Source: a virus
Length of the DNA: 39,305 nucleotides
Strand: one strand, 5' to 3'
Virus record (IMG/VR): IMGVR_UViG_3300045988_059606
The translations under genes were made by a program, and so were the position numbers. Positions within the stretch are counted from its first letter, which is position 1. Every line of letters starts with the position of its first letter. Positions 5,758 through 39,305 of the stretch are shown here, in pieces. The notes below the pieces were generated by a model that saw only the letters and a program-made list of their open reading frames with translations, searched no databases and had not been told where the DNA came from.

Positions 5758-6198
5758 TTATGCCTCCTCTTTCTTAATTTCTAAGCTATATTCGCTTGCT
5801 ATTTCTGCCGTTTCTTCCGGCACGGTGTTTTCGTAAAAGTCGAAATCCACCGATATTTGCAAAATGTTTTCTTTCTGTCCTACGTAATCGTGCGTTATTT
5901 CTCCTACCGTCAAGTTTCTATCCGCGATCTTTACGCACATTCCGAATGCGTCGCGCACCTTGTCTAATAGCCTCATTTGGTCTAATTCGTCGGGTGCCGA
6001 TTGGAAATAAGTAATTTTGATAGTGAAACCGGATTTTGCAAAGCCGATCGTTTCGCGTTTGAACGGTTTACTAATTTTTTCCACAAATAAAGAGGGCGTT
6101 GTATAGCCCTCTGTTACTTCTTTCCCGTATACTGTTAAGCCGGTAGCGTTTTCTAGCAATTCGTTAATTGCTGCCTTAATTTCAACGTTTGATAACAC
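5758..6198 (-). CDS. Tail completion/terminator-like protein (position of XkdJ)
   Basis: 146-aa ORF between the head-tail joining genes and the sheath; called by position only. Confidence 0.45.
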   Translation of the reverse strand: MLSNVEIKAAINELLENATGLTVYGKEVTEGYTTPSLFVEKISKPFKRETIGFAKSGFTIKITYFQSAPDELDQMRLLDKVRDAFGMCVKIADRNLTVGEITHDYVGQKENILQISVDFDFYENTVPEETAEIASEYSLEIKKEEA

Positions 6199-6623
6199 TA
6201 TAGATCATGCCTCCCGAAAACCTCATTGCGTAATTGCTCGAACTTCTCCGGTACAATATCTTGATATTCATTTCTTGTTTGTTCCATCATGTGTTTTCCC
6301 GGCACCCAACCTATGACTTTCCCGCCTCGTACTAAGTTGTGCCCGTTCTCCACCAAATGAAAATGTCTTGCCGAATTATAGACAAGCGCTAACGTTGTGT
6401 CTCCCTCTATTTTGGTTTTTACGCCAAACTTATTGCGTAGCTTTTTTGATTGGTCTTTGTTATCGTCTGTTCCGTCCGGGGTTCTTGCTTTGCAACTTTT
6501 CTTAAACTCATTTGCGATTTTTCTTAAGCCGCTCCGCATCTCGTTCGGGTATTCATTTGTTGCAAACCTTAAGTCTGTCTCTAACTCGTCCAATCCCTCG
6601 ATTTTGAAATCAAAACTAGCCAC
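6198..6623 (-). CDS. HK97 gp10-family head-tail joining protein
   Basis: Motifs EMRSGLRKIANEFKKSCKARTP and RHFHLVENGH; synteny. Confidence 0.7.
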   Translation of the reverse strand: MASFDFKIEGLDELETDLRFATNEYPNEMRSGLRKIANEFKKSCKARTPDGTDDNKDQSKKLRNKFGVKTKIEGDTTLALVYNSARHFHLVENGHNLVRGGKVIGWVPGKHMMEQTRNEYQDIVPEKFEQLRNEVFGRHDL

Positions 6624-6963
6624 TTTCTACCACGCTCCTTGCCTCGTCTATCTTCTCTGTGCAAGACATTTCTAGCATTTCGTTGCTCTCGCGAATATTG
6701 CGTATTGATCGAATATTAAACAAGCGATCCCTATATTGTATATACATATCCGGCGTTACGTCCTCCATATAGCGGGTTGTTATGATGTAGGTTAACTCCG
6801 GGTGTTCCTTTTCTGCCTCGATATACTCGCGCCCGCTTTTCGGTTCCACACTCGCCCAAACCGTCCGGATCTTTTTAAGAACCTGCGTCGTTTGGTTCAT
6901 TTCGTTTTTTTCTTCTACGAATTTGCAAAATGAAACCCTTTTGTTTGTTCTTCCTATATCCAT
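6616..6963 (-). CDS. Head closure protein (HK97 gp8-like head-tail adaptor)
   Basis: VWASVEPKSGREYIEAEKEHPELTYIITTRY...LFNIRSI pattern. Confidence 0.7.
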   Translation of the reverse strand: MDIGRTNKRVSFCKFVEEKNEMNQTTQVLKKIRTVWASVEPKSGREYIEAEKEHPELTYIITTRYMEDVTPDMYIQYRDRLFNIRSIRNIRESNEMLEMSCTEKIDEARSVVESG

Positions 6964-31106: not shown

Positions 31107-31640
31107 TTAACCCTGCTTTTCTGTGTAGTGGTTGCAACGCTCTTTAATGCTGCATTCGTCGCAATTTTGATTTTTGCATACAATATCATTGATCTTGTGA
31201 TCTAATTTGTCGTCCGCGATTTTAAGGATCTTTACTAGCCAAATCGGTATTTTTTCCGGCATGATAACGTATAGATTTTCTAAAATGCTTGTTAACTCGT
31301 TAATGAGTAGCACTGCCACGGTGTACCAACCGATATAAATACTAAATCCAAGATCAAATCCGATCTGTACGCCTAACTCTTTAATTCCGTAACCTACCAT
31401 AAACGCTACGCCGATAAGTACGAAATACATAGCTTTTTTTATAATCCCTTGTAACCCTGTTTTGCTGCTCCATTCTTTCAAGAAAAATGCAGCTTTGATC
31501 CAACCAGTCAAATAATCGACTACAACGGCTATCATAAATAAAATAAGCAACGTTGGCACTCTGTTAAAAAGCGCTGCCGCTGCCGTAATAAATGCCGACA
31601 TTGTAAACCCTGCCCCTCCTATCTTGTCTGTAATTTCCAT
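31107..31640 (-). CDS. Holin (toxin-secretion/phage-lysis holin family) with Cys-rich C-terminal tail
   Basis: VVVDYLTGWIKAAF...SSKTGLQGIIKKAMYFVLI. Three hydrophobic segments. I preferred the ATG at 31640 (GGAG site). Confidence 0.8.
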   Translation of the reverse strand: MEITDKIGGAGFTMSAFITAAAALFNRVPTLLILFMIAVVVDYLTGWIKAAFFLKEWSSKTGLQGIIKKAMYFVLIGVAFMVGYGIKELGVQIGFDLGFSIYIGWYTVAVLLINELTSILENLYVIMPEKIPIWLVKILKIADDKLDHKINDIVCKNQNCDECSIKERCNHYTEKQG

Positions 31641-32770
31641 GTGTCCTGCTCCTTTCTTTGTTCTTCCTGCAATGCTCTTTCTCTGCTTGCGTCTGTACAA
31701 TGCAAAACAAAGCCGCTTATTACCTTTTCTTTAAGCCCTTTATTTGTGCAATGCGAAATTAAGCCGAAATAACTTTGCATTGTTGCGTTTACTTCCTTAA
31801 GTGTCATTTCTCCCGCCTCGTATGCTTTTATCACGTACTTAATACGTACCCGCATACGCCGCACGGTGTCTTTTCTTAGTTTGATTTCGTCTTTATTTAT
31901 GATAAAGCCTACAAACTCTATATTGTGTGTTGTTGGGTTTATTGCCGTTTTGTTGTTAAGGTTAAGTTTCAAAACCTCCAATAAGAATTGCTCTATTTTT
32001 TCTTTGAACTCTACCAGCTCTTTGTAATCGTCATGCAAAATTATTATATCGTCCATATATCTAACGACATAATGTAAATGCAATTCGTGTTTTATGTATT
32101 GGTCTAACTCATTTAGATAAATATTCGCAAACATTTGTGAGGTTAAATTACCTATTGGCATACCTTTGTCGAATAGCATATCTTTAGGATCTATTTCCGA
32201 CGGATCCGCCCCAATCGGCAGCCCAAACGCTCTTTTATTGGAATTTATTATCTTTTCCAATAAGGCTAATAAGTCCTTGTCCTTTATTTTCTTTGCCAAA
32301 ATTTGTAGCAAAACTTCGTGATCCACGCGATAAAAGAACTTGGAAATGTCAAGTTTCAAGTAGTAATACTGTTTCTCTTTGCGGTCTGTCTGCCTCAACC
32401 AATATTGCAGGCGGGCAGCTGCTTTCTCTCTGCCCTTTTCTTTCCTGCAACCGTAACTATCTTCAATGTATATCTTTTCGTATAGTGGGTTAAGTTTTCT
32501 ATAAACCGCCCATTGCAAGACGCGATCCCTATATTGCAACGCCATTATTAAACGTTTCTTTGGAACTGTGATATAAATAAGTCTGTAACCGCGTTGCTTG
32601 TATCGTTTCGCTTGTAAATCCTCGTACAGATCTATTAAGTTTTCGTCCAATTCCATATTGAAACGCATTACCTCGTTTCGCTCGGTTTTACATTCCTTTG
32701 CGTCTATGTTGGCTCCGCATAAGTTTTCGTAGTCTATAATTTCTTTGTATGTTATGTTAAATGTTTTCAT
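31619..32770 (-). CDS. DGR-type reverse transcriptase
   Basis: LPIGNLTSQMFANIYL (DGR motif-4 signature, IGxxxSQ) and VRYMDDIIIL (YxDD); adjacent to TR and avd. Confidence 0.9.
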   Translation of the reverse strand: MKTFNITYKEIIDYENLCGANIDAKECKTERNEVMRFNMELDENLIDLYEDLQAKRYKQRGYRLIYITVPKKRLIMALQYRDRVLQWAVYRKLNPLYEKIYIEDSYGCRKEKGREKAAARLQYWLRQTDRKEKQYYYLKLDISKFFYRVDHEVLLQILAKKIKDKDLLALLEKIINSNKRAFGLPIGADPSEIDPKDMLFDKGMPIGNLTSQMFANIYLNELDQYIKHELHLHYVVRYMDDIIILHDDYKELVEFKEKIEQFLLEVLKLNLNNKTAINPTTHNIEFVGFIINKDEIKLRKDTVRRMRVRIKYVIKAYEAGEMTLKEVNATMQSYFGLISHCTNKGLKEKVISGFVLHCTDASRERALQEEQRKEQDTWKLQTR

Positions 32771-32924
32771 AGAAAAATAGCGCCGCGCGTTACACTCCTC
32801 GACTTGCTACTAAATGTATTCGCAGCAATGTTTATTTTGCCTTTCGGCAGGGGAAAGCGCCCCTTATCTTCTCTCCGTGCTGCACGCCGGTATCGTGCCC
32901 CGGCGTGTTCTGACGTAATGAGAA

Positions 32925-33035
32925 AAGCGCAGAAAAAGCCCAAGTTGTCGTTGGCGTTGGATCGCGGGTTGTTCAAATTGCCGTTAGCCTCCCCGGCATT
33001 GCCCCCATTACCATAATTGCCGCCGCGGTTAAGCA
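32925..33035 (-). repeat. DGR template repeat (TR), non-coding
   Basis: 111-bp alignment to VR with 16 mismatches, all at plus-strand T (adenine on the coding strand). Contains 11 AAY codons in the VR frame. Confidence 0.9.
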
Positions 33036-33060
33036 ACCTAACGACGCTAACCCCATTTCT

Positions 33061-33465
33061 TTATTTTAATTTGTTAAGCCATGATCCCAAGATTTTACCT
33101 ATCTCTATAAGTTGTGCGCTCCAATGTAATTGTTGCTTTGACGCTATCAAAATAACTCTATTATCATATCCCGGATCTGACGCAATTAGTATTAGCTGCC
33201 GCAGGTTCTTTAACTCTGCGTCTGCCTCCTCTAATACTGCCTTTTTGTGTTCCTTTGCCATTGCTCGATTTATCAACCGCATTGCCTCAAACATTGACTT
33301 TTCAATTTGCGCCCCAATAGCGTTGCCAATTCTATATTTTCTCGGGAATTGTCCATTATTTAGCACACCGTTTCCGTAACTTATCATTTCGCGCATTTTC
33401 TTATAAAGTAATAGATCCTCTTTCGGATCCGGCGGTTTTGCATTTGCTCTGAAATTTCTTTGCAT
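33061..33465 (-). CDS. avd: Accessory variability determinant (Avd-like four-helix-bundle protein)
   Basis: 134 aa, basic and helical (FPRKYRIGNAIGAQIEKSMFEAMRLINRAM). Lies between the target gene and TR. Confidence 0.75.
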   Translation of the reverse strand: MQRNFRANAKPPDPKEDLLLYKKMREMISYGNGVLNNGQFPRKYRIGNAIGAQIEKSMFEAMRLINRAMAKEHKKAVLEEADAELKNLRQLILIASDPGYDNRVILIASKQQLHWSAQLIEIGKILGSWLNKLK

Positions 33466-33480
33466 ATTTCAACTCCAAAT

Positions 33481-33505
33481 AGGCTGCGCCCTCCCGGGCG
33501 CGCCT
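33481..33505 (-). other. GC-rich hairpin downstream of VR / target stop codon
   Basis: Arms 33481..33491 and 33496..33505 form 10 bp with one bulged T. The 4-nt loop reads GGGA on the coding strand. Confidence 0.55.
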
Positions 33506-33517
33506 GCAAGATAAAAG

Positions 33518-34570
33518 TTACTTAAGATCCTCCGGATCATAATAAGCGCAGAAAAAGCCCAAGTAGTCGTAGGCGATGGATCGCGGGCCGTCCAAAGAGC
33601 CGCGAGCCTCCCCGGCATGGCCCCCAGCACCATAATCGCCGCCGCGGAAAAGCACCCTCTCTCCGTTGTTTCTGAACCAAAAACCGCCGTGTCCTGTTGC
33701 ACTTGTCGCCATTGGGTAAATAGCAAGTGCCTTAAGTACATCCGGAATGTTAACGCCGCTCTTTACTTTCATGCTTGCAAAGTCGCAATATCCATACGCG
33801 TTATCATTTTCCTGCTGATGTTCTATCGTTGTAGAAATATAGAAATTTCCGGTACCTGCTGCCGGTGTTCCCGAATAGTCAAATTTAAGTGTTCCTGCCG
33901 TTCCCGGCGCAACCAATGATCCGTCCGGTAAAATTGCTTTCCACGCTGCGCTATTGGCGCTCTGATCCGTTCCGGTAATTGCCGCGTTATTGTCCGCGAT
34001 AACTTGTAATTCTCCGTTGTAAAGTCTGAAACCTCCAAGCCATTTGTTTACATTCCCTACAAAGTCGTTAATACCGCCTCCCTGCATATCTGTACTCCAT
34101 GACTTGTCGCCGGTTCCGGTTAACGTTCTATTTCCTCCTGCTGACATTACGCCTCTTTCGTATGCGTGTACGTGGCTCTTGCCCTGCGCGGTATTCCCTC
34201 TTGGGTGTATATCTGCCGCTGTTAACAGATTGTGCACTAACCCCCATTCCGCAGCCGTCATAAGGTGGAAACCTGCGCCGTTATTTTCGCAATATTGCTT
34301 TGCTTGATCGAAATTAACGTTTACCGCCGGTTCTTGGTTTGGCAGGCTATACGCTCTACCGCCTTTTACCGTTGAAATGTATGCTGGTAAATAGATCTTT
34401 GGCAAGATTTTGTCGTTAATCTTAAATGCCGGGTGTGGTACGTGTGCGGATCCGATACCCAAATCGTCCATGTATCTTAATGCGTATTCCTCGAATACAA
34501 GTGGCAGTCCTTTATCGTTCAAAATTATTTTCTGTTTTGCCTGCGCCTTAAGATCTTCGTAATTACTCAT
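33518..34570 (-). CDS. DGR target: tail-fibre-associated receptor-binding protein with FGE-sulfatase/C-type-lectin fold
   Basis: PAVNVNFDQAKQYCENNGAGFHLMTAAEWG; C-terminal VR. GGAGG site before the ATG at 34570. Confidence 0.85.
   Translation of the reverse strand: MSNYEDLKAQAKQKIILNDKGLPLVFEEYALRYMDDLGIGSAHVPHPAFKINDKILPKIYLPAYISTVKGGRAYSLPNQEPAVNVNFDQAKQYCENNGAGFHLMTAAEWGLVHNLLTAADIHPRGNTAQGKSHVHAYERGVMSAGGNRTLTGTGDKSWSTDMQGGGINDFVGNVNKWLGGFRLYNGELQVIADNNAAITGTDQSANSAAWKAILPDGSLVAPGTAGTLKFDYSGTPAAGTGNFYISTTIEHQQENDNAYGYCDFASMKVKSGVNIPDVLKALAIYPMATSATGHGGFWFRNNGERVLFRGGDYGAGGHAGEARGSLDGPRSIAYDYLGFFCAYYDPEDLK
33544..33654 (-). repeat. DGR variable repeat (VR) at the 3' end of the target gene
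   Basis: Offset of 619 nt from TR. Encodes LFRGGDYGAGGHAGEARGSLDGPRSIAYDYLGFFCA, versus LNRGGNYGNGGNAGEANGNLNNPRSNANDNLGFFCA in TR. Confidence 0.9.
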
Positions 34571-34913
34571 TGATATATACCTCCTCAATACTCCAAAGTG
34601 TTAATGTGCATTTTGAAATGTCGAACGCTCTTTCTTTCGGTACTGTTCCCATTTCTCCGGTTTCTTCGTTTTCCTGCTCTACGTAGTCGTACTCCTTTGG
34701 TGGAATTGTTACTTGTGCAACATAATTTTTACCCAATCCCATTACCAAGTTTCCGTCGTCGTCTGCGCAAATATCTTTTGTTATTTCTGTGTCACTCTGA
34801 TATTTAGGCAATCTAATAGCAATCTGATCTCCTAACCAAAGTGTTGTGCCCTCCACTTCGTAGCCGATCTTTTCGCCCTTGTTTTTCTCAATTACCTTGA
34901 TTGTTTTAGACAT
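34563..34913 (-). CDS. Hypothetical tail-fibre-associated protein
   Basis: 116-aa ORF translationally coupled to the target gene (ATGAGTAA overlap). Confidence 0.55.
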   Translation of the reverse strand: MSKTIKVIEKNKGEKIGYEVEGTTLWLGDQIAIRLPKYQSDTEITKDICADDDGNLVMGLGKNYVAQVTIPPKEYDYVEQENEETGEMGTVPKERAFDISKCTLTLWSIEEVYINE

Positions 34914-38336: not shown

Positions 38337-39305
38337 TTATTTCTTTACATTTGGGCTATATACATAGCCGCTTTTTCCTCCTGCGCTGCCGTGATACCAC
38401 GCCGTACCGCTTACATATTCGTACTTTCCGTCGCATACGAATTTATCGCCTTTTTTTAGCGTTGTAACACTTTTTGCGCTCCTGCCTGCCGCTGCACGCA
38501 TGATAGATTTTGTTGTTATTACCGTATAGGTTCCCGCTATGCTTTTGCTGCTGCCTTTTCCGGTTTTCTTCTTTTTCTCCGTGCTTTCCTCGTCTTTTTT
38601 ATCCATAACGTTCTTAAAGGATAATTCTAAACTCATTTTGTGTTGTCCGTTCTCCCATGTATGCGTATCGTTTTGGATCCAAAACACGCCTTTAAGCCCG
38701 GTTGCTGCGTCATGTACCTTAACCGCGTTTCCTGCTATACATTTTATATTTCCGCTTATCGCGTCAACATTCACTTTCTTTTCTATGCCGTTTAGCATAT
38801 TCTTAGCCGCTGTTTGCGCGTTTACGCCTTTCTCTTTTGTATATATACTTTGATATATACCATAGCGTTTTATGTGCCCGGCATTCTTCACGACGCCTAC
38901 TTGTTTTCCCTTGTCCGTGTATATTTTTACTTGGTCTACCATATTCTCTATACTCTCCTCATAAGACGCGGCAGACAAGTTTTTATACTCGTCCAATTCA
39001 TAATTGCTTACTGTTGTTCCTTTTGTCTTTACGCAAAATTTCTTTCCGTTCATGTATGCCATGTACTTTTTTCCGGTTGACTTAGCCGCTTTTGTGTATG
39101 CAGTCATAATAATATCGTATAGGCTACTATCGTCTATAATCAATTTCTTAATAACTTTCTTTGTTGCTACAATGGATCCGGTCGTTATTCCATACTTTTT
39201 GCATATCTCCTTTGTAATAGCCTCTGCCGTTTTATTCTTAAATTTTTGCTTATGGTTTATCCTTAACAAATGGTCTAAAAGATCGCGCGCCTTATATTGT
39301 ATAGT
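38337..39305 (-). CDS. C-terminal part of XkdQ-like hub protein (continuation of 1..335) ending in an SH3b-like domain
   Basis: The frame is continuous across the circular junction. C-terminus GTYTVITTKSIMRAAAGRSAKSVTTLKKGDKFVCDGKYEYVSGTAWYHGSAGGKSGYVYSPNVKK. Confidence 0.8.
   Translation of the reverse strand, partial: TIQYKARDLLDHLLRINHKQKFKNKTAEAITKEICKKYGITTGSIVATKKVIKKLIIDDSSLYDIIMTAYTKAAKSTGKKYMAYMNGKKFCVKTKGTTVSNYELDEYKNLSAASYEESIENMVDQVKIYTDKGKQVGVVKNAGHIKRYGIYQSIYTKEKGVNAQTAAKNMLNGIEKKVNVDAISGNIKCIAGNAVKVHDAATGLKGVFWIQNDTHTWENGQHKMSLELSFKNVMDKKDEESTEKKKKTGKGSSKSIAGTYTVITTKSIMRAAAGRSAKSVTTLKKGDKFVCDGKYEYVSGTAWYHGSAGGKSGYVYSPNVKK
39229..39305. repeat. Terminal direct repeat copy B
   Basis: Identical to 1..77. 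Confidence 0.95.

Follow-up and report, generated by a model that had tools for sequence, protein, structure and literature searches.

A complete diversity-generating retroelement (DGR) and its natural variants in a temperate, uncultivated gut phage of Clostridia

Gene content and genomic context

The window analyzed in the present study, 39,305 nucleotides of viral DNA (IMG/VR record IMGVR_UViG_3300045988_059606), is the complete circular genome of a temperate contractile-tailed phage. On its minus strand lies a complete cassette consisting of a target gene with a variable repeat (VR) at its 3' end, an Avd gene, a template repeat (TR), an RT-14 spacer RNA, and an intact reverse transcriptase (RT) gene, as follows:

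33518..34570, minus strand: target gene (variable protein; 350 aa if translation starts at the ATG at 34570), VR being C-terminal
33544..33654, minus strand: variable repeat (VR), covering codons 312-348 of the 356-codon target ORF at its 3' end
33061..33465, minus strand: Avd (accessory variability determinant), 134 aa, Pfam bAvd 3.4e-19
32925..33035, minus strand: template repeat (TR), non-coding, between avd and the RT gene, with 26 adenines, of which 11 AAY codons (VR frame) account for 22
32783..32926, minus strand: spacer RNA, Rfam RF02921 "RT-14 RNA", cmscan 61.5 bits against a gathering threshold of 48.1
31619..32770, minus strand: DGR reverse transcriptase, 383 aa, intact, RVT_1 1.4e-25

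The gene order is conserved and runs from baseplate J and Mu gp48 through three small ORFs to the target, Avd, TR, RT, holin, and endolysin. In all relatives, the target is the last gene of the baseplate module (sheath initiator, baseplate J, Mu gp48-like, and three small ORFs), and the DGR and then the lysis cassette follow directly after it. Megablast found no match to the 4.5-kb DGR region among 50,697 deposited phage genomes, and no isolated phage in INPHARED was similar at the DNA level. All contigs known from this phage lineage come from metagenomes and MAGs. When genome contigs were scanned, the target-protein alignment retrieved no relative, and the RT alignment retrieved only relatives of 68-75% identity, which were located in Clostridia genomes and MAGs.

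Reverse transcriptase, Avd, and target protein

The RT carries IGNLTSQ at residues 206-212 and YMDD at 238-241, and its R73 is equivalent to R74 of bRT, the enzyme of phage BPP-1. The DGR RT signature [I/V/L]GxxxSQ was defined previously (PMC7826257); this signature and a YxDD catalytic box, which mark RTs of the DGR clade, are both found in the RT next to the TR/VR pair. The nearest solved RT was 8UB7 (phmmer E = 3.4e-35, in two stretches), and the best group II intron RT reached 4e-19. The residue numbering of 8UB7 (K29, R74, I181, Q187, and YMDD 213-216) agrees with that in PMC3240598 and bioRxiv 10.1101/2023.10.23.563531, which would identify it as BPP-1 bRT. Regarding Avd, the Pfam bAvd match scored 69.7 bits against a cut-off of 40, the PHROG match was to "Avd protein of DGR" (3e-19), and the NCBIfam match to DivGenRetAVD (3.6e-17, 62.6 bits) was below the curated equivalog cut-off of 80.

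The VR occupies the last 37 codons of the target ORF ahead of an 8-codon tail. This ORF may also be read from a TTG at 34588; the gene calls of relatives begin at the equivalent of the ATG at 34570. The protein is a full-length homologue of TaqVP (PDB 5VF4; phmmer E = 8.4e-55, 34% identity), and its AlphaFold2 model (pLDDT 87) matched 5VF4 in Foldseek with a TM score of 0.88-0.89. The target is modeled as a single domain of the C-type-lectin / FGE-type fold. Pfam FGE-sulfatase scored 21.7 bits on this protein, under the 23.3-bit cut-off.

Differences between the template and variable repeats

TR and VR were compared by an ungapped alignment at an offset of 619. The sequence-only reading, made before any computation, had counted 95 identical positions out of 111 and 16 mismatches, each at a plus-strand T of TR, namely, an adenine on the coding strand. 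The computed alignment reproduced the identity and every mismatch exactly, at TR positions (plus-strand coordinates) 32946, 32952, 32957, 32969, 32970, 32973, 32978, 32979, 32984, 32985, 33000, 33008, 33009, 33018, 33029, and 33030, and contained no mismatch off a TR adenine within these 111 nt. With 26 adenines in 111 nt, the hypergeometric probability that 16/16 mismatches fall on adenines is 6.5e-13.

All 11 AAY codons of TR have been rewritten, as previously claimed; in the target frame, VR encodes F, D, A, H, R, S, D, G, I, Y, and Y in their place. The adenines outside AAY codons, at 33014 (TAT), 32990 (GAG), 32962 (CGA), and 32948 (GAC), are unchanged in the window copy (4/4), also in agreement with the earlier description; there are only four of them, and six AAY adenines are likewise unmutated in the window VR. 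In relatives, non-AAY adenines are mutable, giving Y-to-C, Y-to-S, D-to-A, D-to-G, and D-to-V replacements. The theoretical repertoire proposed earlier, 15^11, is arithmetically correct (8.65e12), but leaves out the non-AAY adenines, with which it reaches approximately 5.5e14 peptides. The accompanying claim that no stop codon may arise is valid for both figures.

A repeat search delimited a 115-nt repeat, at 32925-33039 and 33544-33658, and relatives have a clean repeat of 115-117 nt; when their 115-nt definition is applied, VR runs to 33658. A single non-adenine mismatch lies 1 nt beyond the 111-nt bounds, with a coding-strand T at TR 33036 against a G at VR 33655. It changes Leu to Val at a residue that is Leu in the other 19/19 near-identical aligned proteins, and it sits at the 5' edge of the repeat. 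A scan of the whole window on both strands, in which mismatches were counted at non-adenine positions only, found TR and one VR alone, and no second target for this TR.

Variation among related loci

A comparison with related copies, which had been suggested as a check, showed that the window and five near-identical loci carry six different VRs over a conserved TR. TR differs at 0-3 positions among these loci, and 71/71 TR/VR mismatches are on TR adenines. Private non-adenine TR variants (G-to-A and C-to-T) in two of the loci, L001 and L006, recur in their cognate VRs, comparative evidence which points to information passing from TR to VR and not in the reverse direction. Between the window and L001, VR divergence is 17.4%, while that of the flanks is 0.62%. 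The 11 AAY codons show an entropy of 2.57 bits among 20 near-identical proteins, versus 0.076 bits at the remaining positions, and in the 90%-identity cluster to which the window protein belongs (398 distinct sequences), variation lies on the AAY codons.

In the wider family, adenine-only TR/VR pairs were found in 69/79 loci from IMG/VR and other sources. The adenine pattern is kept across 795 substitutions in 65 non-redundant related pairs, with 51% of TR adenines being substituted; misincorporation by BPP-1 bRT in vitro was reported to be 52% (PMC7826257). Substitutions in the family are most often A to G, then T, and then C. This spectrum is unlike the in vitro dATP preference of bRT, which would yield A to T, and selection on the protein could explain the mismatch.

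The 3' end of VR and the downstream hairpin

Two elements at or beyond the 3' end of VR were considered for a role in target recognition:

33544..33564, minus strand: invariant 21-nt VR 3' end, ACTTGGGCTTTTTCTGCGCTT, identical to TR 32925-32945
33481..33505, minus strand: GC-rich hairpin or cruciform, 38 nt 3' of VR and 12 nt past the target stop codon

The sequence-only reading described the last 21 nt of the repeat as invariant, nearly A-free, and IMH-like. The former two properties hold, with one adenine being present in each of the TR and VR copies of ACTTGGGCTTTTTCTGCGCTT, and the points in favor of the IMH-like label are two, position and adenine scarcity. A difference of the IMH versus IMH* kind is not visible at the locus; the 21 nt are the same in both repeats, and homology then simply ends. 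Since this segment is the same in TR and VR, it cannot alone set directionality, and it is likely to provide the homology for 3' cDNA integration.

The downstream hairpin has 6 perfect bp, 4 more beyond a bulge, and a GGGA (GRNA) loop at 33492-33495, with a DNA fold z of -3.2. A hairpin with a stem of at least 6 bp and a 4-nt loop is present at the equivalent place in 39/53 non-redundant related loci, 32 of which have a GRNA loop, and the stem sequences differ among loci. In control windows, such a hairpin was found in 31/345 and a GRNA loop in 7/345. The hairpin at 33481..33505 matches the element described for BPP-1 (PMC3240598), and is a better-supported target-recognition element than the 21-nt segment.

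Spacer RNA and long-range pairing

The RF02921 model was matched over its full length (1-144), the match begins exactly at the 3' end of TR, and an RT-14 match was found at the equivalent position in 10/20 related loci. The following segments in and around the spacer form the proposed RNA structure:

32920..32927, minus strand: CUUUUCUC, at the TR 3' boundary, proposed template strand of a template:primer duplex
32868..32875, minus strand: GAGAGAAG, spacer nt 50-57, proposed primer strand with the priming adenosine
33043..33054, minus strand: GGGGUUAGCGUC, 5' strand of an upstream:spacer duplex, beginning 7 nt past the avd stop codon and upstream of TR
32850..32861, minus strand: GGCGCUUUCCCC, in the spacer, 3' strand of the duplex with GGGGUUAGCGUC
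32883..32907, minus strand: 8-bp stem-loop just 3' of TR, with compensatory changes in 5/8 pairs

In 14 spacer sequences, 15/43 pairs covary, and when long-range pairing is included in the RNA structure, 19/51 pairs covary; 0/500 shuffles attained the observed score in either case. The single-sequence fold of TR and the spacer was insignificant (z = -1.2), and the structure is evident only by a comparative analysis. The duplex between GGGGUUAGCGUC and GGCGCUUUCCCC has 12 pairs, 4 of which show compensatory changes, with 95% of cells paired, and is a candidate equivalent of the "cPRT Stop" duplex of BPP-1. The Rfam RT-14 consensus shows the stretch at 32850..32861 as unpaired. A local GGGGC...CCCC hairpin, helix 4 of the spacer-only alignment, showed no compensatory change and was replaced by the covarying long-range pairing.

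CUUUUCUC pairs with GAGAGAAG over 8 bp and is unchanged in 14 relatives, and because this duplex is invariant, covariation gives no test of the pairing. In BPP-1, the pairing partners are Sp 47-56 and TR 117-129, and priming is from Sp A56 (PMC6182149; bioRxiv 10.1101/2023.10.23.563531), and by analogy GAGAGAAG may be the primer. The end of the primer strand, "Sp A56/G57," is the same as that in BPP-1; we dismissed this as a coincidence because the initiation distance is ~58 nt here versus ~73 nt in BPP-1 and the numbering depends on the assigned repeat end. In BPP-1 and 207 other DGRs, an Avd-binding stem-loop is found at the place corresponding to 32883..32907 (bioRxiv 10.1101/2023.10.23.563531), which suggests that the stem-loop of the window also binds Avd. 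Scans for promoters and terminators revealed no enrichment over shuffles. The sole weak promoter candidate, with a 9/12 match, lies upstream of TR at 33090-33063 (minus strand).

Taken together, we somewhat favor the view that a large clade of Clostridia-phage DGRs uses RT-14 as its cis-priming spacer RNA and that the center and 5' end of RT-14 form two duplexes, the center pairing upstream of TR and the 5' end entering the invariant 8-bp template:primer duplex with the last TR nucleotides. If this is true, the two-duplex RNP architecture of BPP-1 recurs with an unrelated RNA family in DGRs of Gram-positive phages, and the priming adenosine is predictable at spacer nt 55-56 (window 32869-32870).

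Proposed mechanism and alternative explanations

We regard the locus as a canonical and currently active DGR in a complete temperate contractile-tailed phage, with a probability of approximately 95%. An RNA would be transcribed across the avd-TR intergenic segment, TR, and the spacer; CUUUUCUC at the 3' edge of TR would pair with GAGAGAAG at spacer nt 50-57, and the upstream segment with the spacer. Both duplexes and further stem-loops would dock the RNA on an RT-Avd complex, and the RT would prime in cis off a spacer adenosine. TR would then be copied faithfully save opposite adenines, where any nucleotide would be inserted approximately half the time, and the cDNA would replace VR in the target gene, guided by the 3'-terminal 21 nt of VR, which would supply homology, and by the downstream GRNA-loop hairpin. 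Since 22/26 TR adenines are at positions 1 and 2 of the 11 AAY codons, each event would rewrite 11 surface residues on the ligand-binding face of a C-type-lectin-fold protein and would not create a stop codon. BPP-1 serves here as the model, by analogy, for priming in cis, for the exact nucleotides at which priming and initiation would occur, for the part played by Avd, for how the cDNA would be integrated, and for receptor binding. The intact cassette, the adenine-only mismatches, and the differing VRs of relatives argue for mutagenic retrohoming, the process to which the sequence-only reading had attributed the repeat pair.

A direct repeat with its copies 619 nt apart, 85% identity, and one non-adenine difference at its edge might also be produced by an ordinary duplication that diverged by point mutations or by recombination among phage variants, in the absence of reverse transcription. 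This explanation is already refuted by the adenine-only pattern: the adenines of a single copy account for 16/16 differences (P = 6.5e-13), and the pattern extends across the substitutions of the 65 non-redundant related pairs. Moreover, one copy is invariant among genomes while the other is hypervariable, and an Avd gene, a DGR-type RT, and a DGR spacer RNA adjoin. The view that the locus is a relic, the VR diversity of which is historical and the window copy of which no longer retrohomes, draws on the close relative L006, in which a 2-nt gap breaks the RT into two ORFs and VR is nonetheless diversified, indicating that a diversified VR can outlive its RT. However, the RT, Avd, TR, spacer RNA structure, and target hairpin of the window are all intact, and genomes with 99% identical flanks and 99-100% identical RTs carry wholly different VRs, which implies turnover on the timescale of strain divergence. 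We consider a relic to be very unlikely.

The function of the target leaves more room for an alternative. The 11 variable residues are expected to lie on the surface, on the ligand-binding face, as they do in TaqVP (PMC6328139), and the target is presumably a receptor-binding protein, such that diversification would change host or receptor specificity. The target may instead resemble TaqVP as a soluble or surface protein that binds a different ligand, for example, in the control of lysogeny or superinfection. TaqVP is monomeric and lacks the trimerizing domains of Mtd (PMC6328139), neither Pfam nor NCBIfam detected a tail-fibre N-terminal domain in the target, NCBIfam provided no name for the protein, and its best PHROG (phrog_2889, 9.7e-88) is a family of unknown function. 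On the other hand, in all relatives the gene closes the conserved baseplate module and is followed by the DGR and lysis cassette. "Antireceptor" and "BPP-1 major tropism-determinant-like protein" are the annotations borne by its homologues from isolated phages, and a PHROG named "tail protein" was matched weakly (1.5e-9); the tail or receptor role is based on this gene position and PHROG match. A non-receptor target appears to be improbable, although less so than a relic.

Comparison with known systems

The locus is a textbook DGR, a well-known type of system, and existing knowledge on DGRs is unchanged by it. Tens of thousands of DGRs have been catalogued, many from gut phages (PMC8144416). 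DGRs are enriched in the human gut and Firmicutes, and their viral targets are mostly tail proteins of the C-type-lectin fold (Roux et al., 2021, PMC8144416). The present locus offers a clean and complete example, diversifying in nature, from a temperate phage of gut Clostridia that has not been cultivated. Its target is a close structural homologue of the crystallized TaqVP, its hundreds of natural VR variants are available for a study of the sequence space permitted by selection, and a comparison of its well-defined RNA architecture with that of BPP-1 could test the generality of cis-primed reverse transcription.

Similar to the prototype DGR of BPP-1 (mtd-avd-TR-brt), the locus has the order of a target with a C-terminal VR, avd, TR, spacer, and RT; TR and VR differ only at adenines, mostly in AAY codons; the RT carries the [I/V/L]GxxxSQ and YMDD motifs and equivalents of R74 and I181; a GC-rich hairpin with a 4-nt GRNA loop lies downstream of VR (PMC3240598); TR-3':spacer and upstream:spacer RNA duplexes are proposed (PMC6182149; bioRxiv 10.1101/2023.10.23.563531); and the target is predicted to have a C-type-lectin fold. 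The two systems also differ in a number of aspects. The window RT is only a distant homologue of bRT (phmmer 3.4e-35, two stretches), and the spacer RNA is RT-14 here and RT-10 in BPP-1 (PMC5737381). The upstream strand of the long-range duplex is inside avd in BPP-1, whereas it is in the avd-TR intergenic segment here. BPP-1 requires a 24-bp sequence immediately 3' of VR, while the hairpin in the window begins 38 nt after VR; the published distance from VR to the hairpin is 4-34 bp across phage DGRs. A (GC)14 region is present at the 3' cDNA integration boundary of BPP-1 (PMC3240598), whereas the window locus has no G/C-only tract ahead of the repeat end. The host is a Gram-positive Clostridia gut bacterium here and belongs to Pseudomonadota in the case of BPP-1.

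The target most closely resembles TaqVP of a Thermus aquaticus prophage (5VF4), a full-length homologue (34% identity, TM 0.88) that is also prophage-encoded and consists of a single FGE-type C-type-lectin domain with a C-terminal VR of ~40 residues, in which variable residues are mostly AAY-encoded and the last residues are invariant (PMC6328139). TaqVP has 9 variable residues (7 AAY) and ~3e9 variants, whereas the window has 11 AAY codons and 3 further protein-altering adenine codons, corresponding to 8.6e12 to 5.5e14 variants; the host phyla also differ. Homologues of the target that are 35-36% identical over 98% of its length occur in the temperate gut phages FP_Lagaffe of Faecalibacterium and Saumur of Clostridium, and it is the FP_Lagaffe homologue that bears the annotation "BPP-1 major tropism-determinant-like protein." Regarding the RNA, the Rfam type of RF02921 RT-14 (Weinberg et al., 2017) is an sRNA of unassigned function near RT genes, and RT-10 alone was tied to a DGR in the source paper (Weinberg et al., 2017). 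The central stretch that is "unpaired" in RF02921 pairs in the window with the segment upstream of TR.

Organization of the cassette and the phage genome

The components of the diversity-generating retroelement (DGR) in the window are as follows; all of its genes lie on the minus strand.

33518-34570, minus strand: target gene (350 aa), the 3' end of which is formed by the variable repeat (VR)
33544-33654, minus strand: VR
33481-33505, minus strand: hairpin AGGCGCGCCC-GGGA-GGGCGCAGCCT (z = -3.2)
33061-33465, minus strand: Avd (Pfam bAvd, 3.4e-19; PHROG "Avd protein of DGR"; NCBIfam DivGenRetAVD below the cut-off)
33043-33054 (upstream of the TR, avd-TR intergenic) with 32850-32861 (spacer), minus strand: long-range 12-bp duplex with 4 compensatory pairs
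32925-33035, minus strand: template repeat (TR), non-coding
between TR and RT, minus strand: spacer, 154 nt
32920-32927 (CUUUUCUC, TR 3' edge) with 32868-32875 (GAGAGAAG), minus strand: invariant 8-bp duplex
32883-32907, minus strand: covarying stem-loop directly past the TR
31619-32770, minus strand: reverse transcriptase (RT), intact, 383 aa (RVT_1, 1.4e-25)

The first 77 nt of the window are an exact copy of 39229-39305, and this 77-bp terminal overlap indicates a complete, circularly closed phage genome of ~39.2 kb; therefore, genes that seem to leave the end, such as that for the tail protein at 38337-39269, resume at the start. The genome encodes an integrase, terminase, portal, major head protein, tail sheath, and tape measure, and the phage is therefore temperate and contractile-tailed. 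No deposited phage genome close to it at the DNA level was found, and relatives with 68-75% RT identity occur in Acetivibrio, Clostridiaceae, Lachnospiraceae, and Acetatifactor genomes.

A sheath initiator, baseplate J, a Mu gp48-like gene, and three small ORFs lie upstream of the cassette, and a holin followed by a CHAP-SH3 endolysin lies downstream. The mechanically called holin ORF (TTG at 31700) overlaps the RT 3' end by 82 nt (31619-31700), while the holin of close relatives is called from an internal start codon with a 22-nt overlap with the RT stop; in L005, one of these related loci, the RT ends at 6952 and the holin starts at 6931. The DGR is thus packed closely between the tail module and the lysis module. 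Two further mechanical ORFs of 89 and 120 aa (32767-33036, minus strand, and 33017-33379, plus strand), which cover the TR plus spacer and avd in antisense, respectively, are almost certainly not genes, and their annotation is unwarranted.

The target protein matched one solved structure, 5VF4 (E = 8.4e-55); this is TaqVP, which serves as variable protein in the DGR of a Thermus aquaticus prophage (PMC6328139). Its AlphaFold2 model (pLDDT 87, pTM 0.91) superposed on 5VF4 with a TM of 0.88-0.89, followed by weaker matches to PvdO, Mtd, TvpA, and FGE-like enzymes; as modelled, this likeness to TaqVP and FGE-like structures identifies the target as one domain of the FGE-type C-type-lectin fold, with the VR at its C-terminus. 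The best solved relative of the RT was 8UB7 (3.4e-35), the chain of which is identified by its residue numbering (K29, R74, I181, Q187, and YMDD at 213-216) as bRT, the RT of the prototype DGR in Bordetella phage BPP-1. The window RT carries the DGR signature IGNLTSQ, YMDD, and equivalents of R74 and I181, residues that promote adenine mutagenesis (PMC7826257).

Adenine-specific differences between TR and VR

A repeat search returned a two-copy direct repeat (32925-33039 and 33544-33658, spacing 619, 85% identity), and an ungapped comparison of the TR and VR gave 95 identical positions out of 111. The 16 mismatches (plus-strand 32946, 32952, 32957, 32969, 32970, 32973, 32978, 32979, 32984, 32985, 33000, 33008, 33009, 33018, 33029, and 33030) all fall on a plus-strand T of the TR, namely, an adenine on the coding strand, a result with a hypergeometric probability of 6.5e-13 given 26 adenines in 111 nt. 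In the frame of the overlapping minus-strand ORF, the TR contains exactly 11 AAY codons, all of which differ in the VR (F, D, A, H, R, S, D, G, I, Y, and Y), and four adenines beyond these codons are unaltered: 33014 (TAT), 32990 (GAG), 32962 (CGA), and 32948 (GAC). The alignment and codon values reproduce in full those of the sequence-only reading, which had proposed mutagenic retrohoming from them. Six adenines inside AAY codons are likewise the same in both repeats. A plain duplication is excluded by this adenine-only pattern. No second VR for this TR was present in the window.

The estimate of 15^11 peptides (8.65e12) without stop codons held for the AAY codons; it omitted other adenines, and the inclusion of the TAT, GAG, and GAC codons raises the repertoire to ~5.5e14, with a stop codon still impossible. 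The repeat is 115-117 nt long in relatives, and the 4 extra nucleotides in the window contain one non-adenine mismatch, where the coding strand reads T in the TR (33036) and G in the VR (33655), located 1 nt beyond the repeat bounds originally proposed. It changes Leu to Val, Leu is retained in 19 of 19 other near-identical aligned proteins, and relatives carry the TR base; its origin may be an ordinary point mutation or an error of the RT opposite a base other than adenine.

Target-site hairpin

The terminal 21 nt of the repeat (ACTTGGGCTTTTTCTGCGCTT) are invariant and nearly free of adenine (one), as had been noted, and can serve as integration homology. The label "IMH-like", after the target-site element at the VR 3' end, was imprecise: being the same in the TR and VR, this segment is unable to distinguish donor from recipient, and, unlike the (GC)14 tract found where 3' cDNA integration reaches its boundary in BPP-1 (PMC3240598), it is not composed of G/C only. 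The hairpin 38 nt past the VR and 12 nt past the target stop codon is the better-supported recognition element. A hairpin with a stem of at least 6 bp and a 4-nt loop was found at the same distance in 39 of 53 non-redundant related loci with unrelated stem sequences; the loop was GRNA in 32 loci and GCAA, which fits GNRA and not GRNA, in 5 more. The corresponding counts in 345 control windows were 31 for the hairpin and 7 for a GRNA loop. The target-recognition hairpin or cruciform of BPP-1 was defined by experiment and noted in other phage DGRs, with GC-rich stems of 7-10 bp and a GRNA loop (PMC3240598), and the hairpin in the window is of this type.

Variation among relatives

The target has 860 homologues at E <= 1e-5 and, when clustered at 90% identity, falls into a group of 398 distinct sequences. 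Among 20 proteins that were 91-97% identical, mean Shannon entropy was 2.57 bits at the 11 AAY codons versus 0.076 bits over the remaining columns; clear variation in the VR was otherwise confined to the TAT codon (Y to C/S), the GAC codon (D to A/G/V), and two columns tracking TR alleles.

The DNA-level comparison with the window covered five related loci, with RT identities of 99-100% (L001, L005, L006, and L007) and 90% (L002). Their TRs differed from that of the window by 0-3 positions, all six VRs, including that of the window, were different, and 71 of 71 TR/VR mismatches were on TR adenines. One identical VR shared by all related genomes, the outcome that would have refuted the sequence-only reading, was therefore not what these loci showed. 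Between the window and L001, 20 of 115 VR positions differed versus 54 of 8661 in the 8.7-kb flanks. L001 and L006 have non-adenine variants private to their TRs (G to A, C to T), and these recurred in each locus's own VR, which shows that information flows from TR to VR. This comparative evidence supports mutagenic retrohoming and indicates that the locus, a canonical DGR, is currently active; a relic element is unlikely in view of the intact parts and VR turnover at the strain level.

The TR alleles of L001 and L006 differ at the equivalents of window 32966, 32982, 32989, and 33003, through a C-to-T change and G-to-A changes (GGGGGC to GGGAGC, GAGGCT to GAAGCT, and AACGGC to AACAGC), and are visible in the VR protein as G/S and P/L dimorphisms. 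Since the latter changes create new mutable adenines, the set of diversifiable positions evolves via TR mutation. The L006 RT (5801-6950) is split into ORFs of 101 and 259 aa by a 2-nt gap; the aligned locus is 99% identical, and its VR differs from its TR at 11 adenines despite the split. Either this DGR lost its activity recently or the split is an artefact of assembly.

A search of IMG/VR with an RT profile yielded 320 relatives. Across all sources, 79 retrieved loci had sufficient sequence upstream, and 69 of them contained an adenine-only TR/VR pair. The substituted fraction of TR adenines was 51% (795 of 1567) over 65 non-redundant pairs, and the window ranked 15th with 62%; the rewriting of all 11 codons is, therefore, unremarkable. 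In vitro, the misincorporation rate of BPP-1 bRT at template adenines is 52% (PMC7826257). Substitutions in these pairs were led by G (379), followed by T (234) and C (181), whereas bRT in vitro most often misincorporates dATP, giving A to T; protein-level selection or another misincorporation preference of this RT clade may account for the difference. In L008 and L012 (~71-73% RT identity), YIDD or YADD replaces YMDD as the catalytic box and the pairs are still adenine-only. The IMG/VR relative L004 carries a diversified VR (5789-5899) with only a partial RT match and no TR at 70% identity or higher, and may be a degraded or rearranged cassette.

Spacer RNA and comparison with known systems

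The spacer between the TR and RT coincides exactly with a match to Rfam RF02921 (RT-14 RNA; 32783-32926, minus strand; 61.5 bits against a gathering score of 48.1); of 20 relatives tested, 10 had a match to this family in the same place. RT-14 is an orphan family of sRNAs found near RT genes, and its source paper tied only RT-10 to a DGR. When 14 sequences were aligned over the interval between the avd stop codon and the start of the RT, the consensus structure comprised 51 pairs, of which 19 show compensatory changes; the observed covariation score was reached by 0 of 500 shuffles, and slid controls collapsed. The spacer strand of the long-range duplex is marked as unpaired in the Rfam consensus.

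The BPP-1 RNP contains a TR:Sp template:primer duplex, an adjacent avd:Sp "cPRT Stop" duplex, and an Avd-binding stem-loop just 3' of the TR (PMC6182149; bioRxiv 10.1101/2023.10.23.563531). The three RNA elements of the window parallel these, with the 33043-33054:32850-32861 duplex resembling "cPRT Stop"; the likeness is structural, and the priming site is a predicted one.

The target may possibly act outside the tail, but synteny and homologue annotations speak against this; homologous targets with ~35% identity occur in the isolated Clostridium phage Saumur and Faecalibacterium phage FP_Lagaffe. DGR architecture of this kind is already well known, with more than 31,000 DGRs catalogued from IMG metagenomes and enriched in the human gut and Firmicutes (PMC8144416). 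Novelty is slight and limited to the assignment of RT-14 to this clade as its DGR spacer RNA, together with a covarying long-range duplex that is absent from the Rfam RT-14 model.
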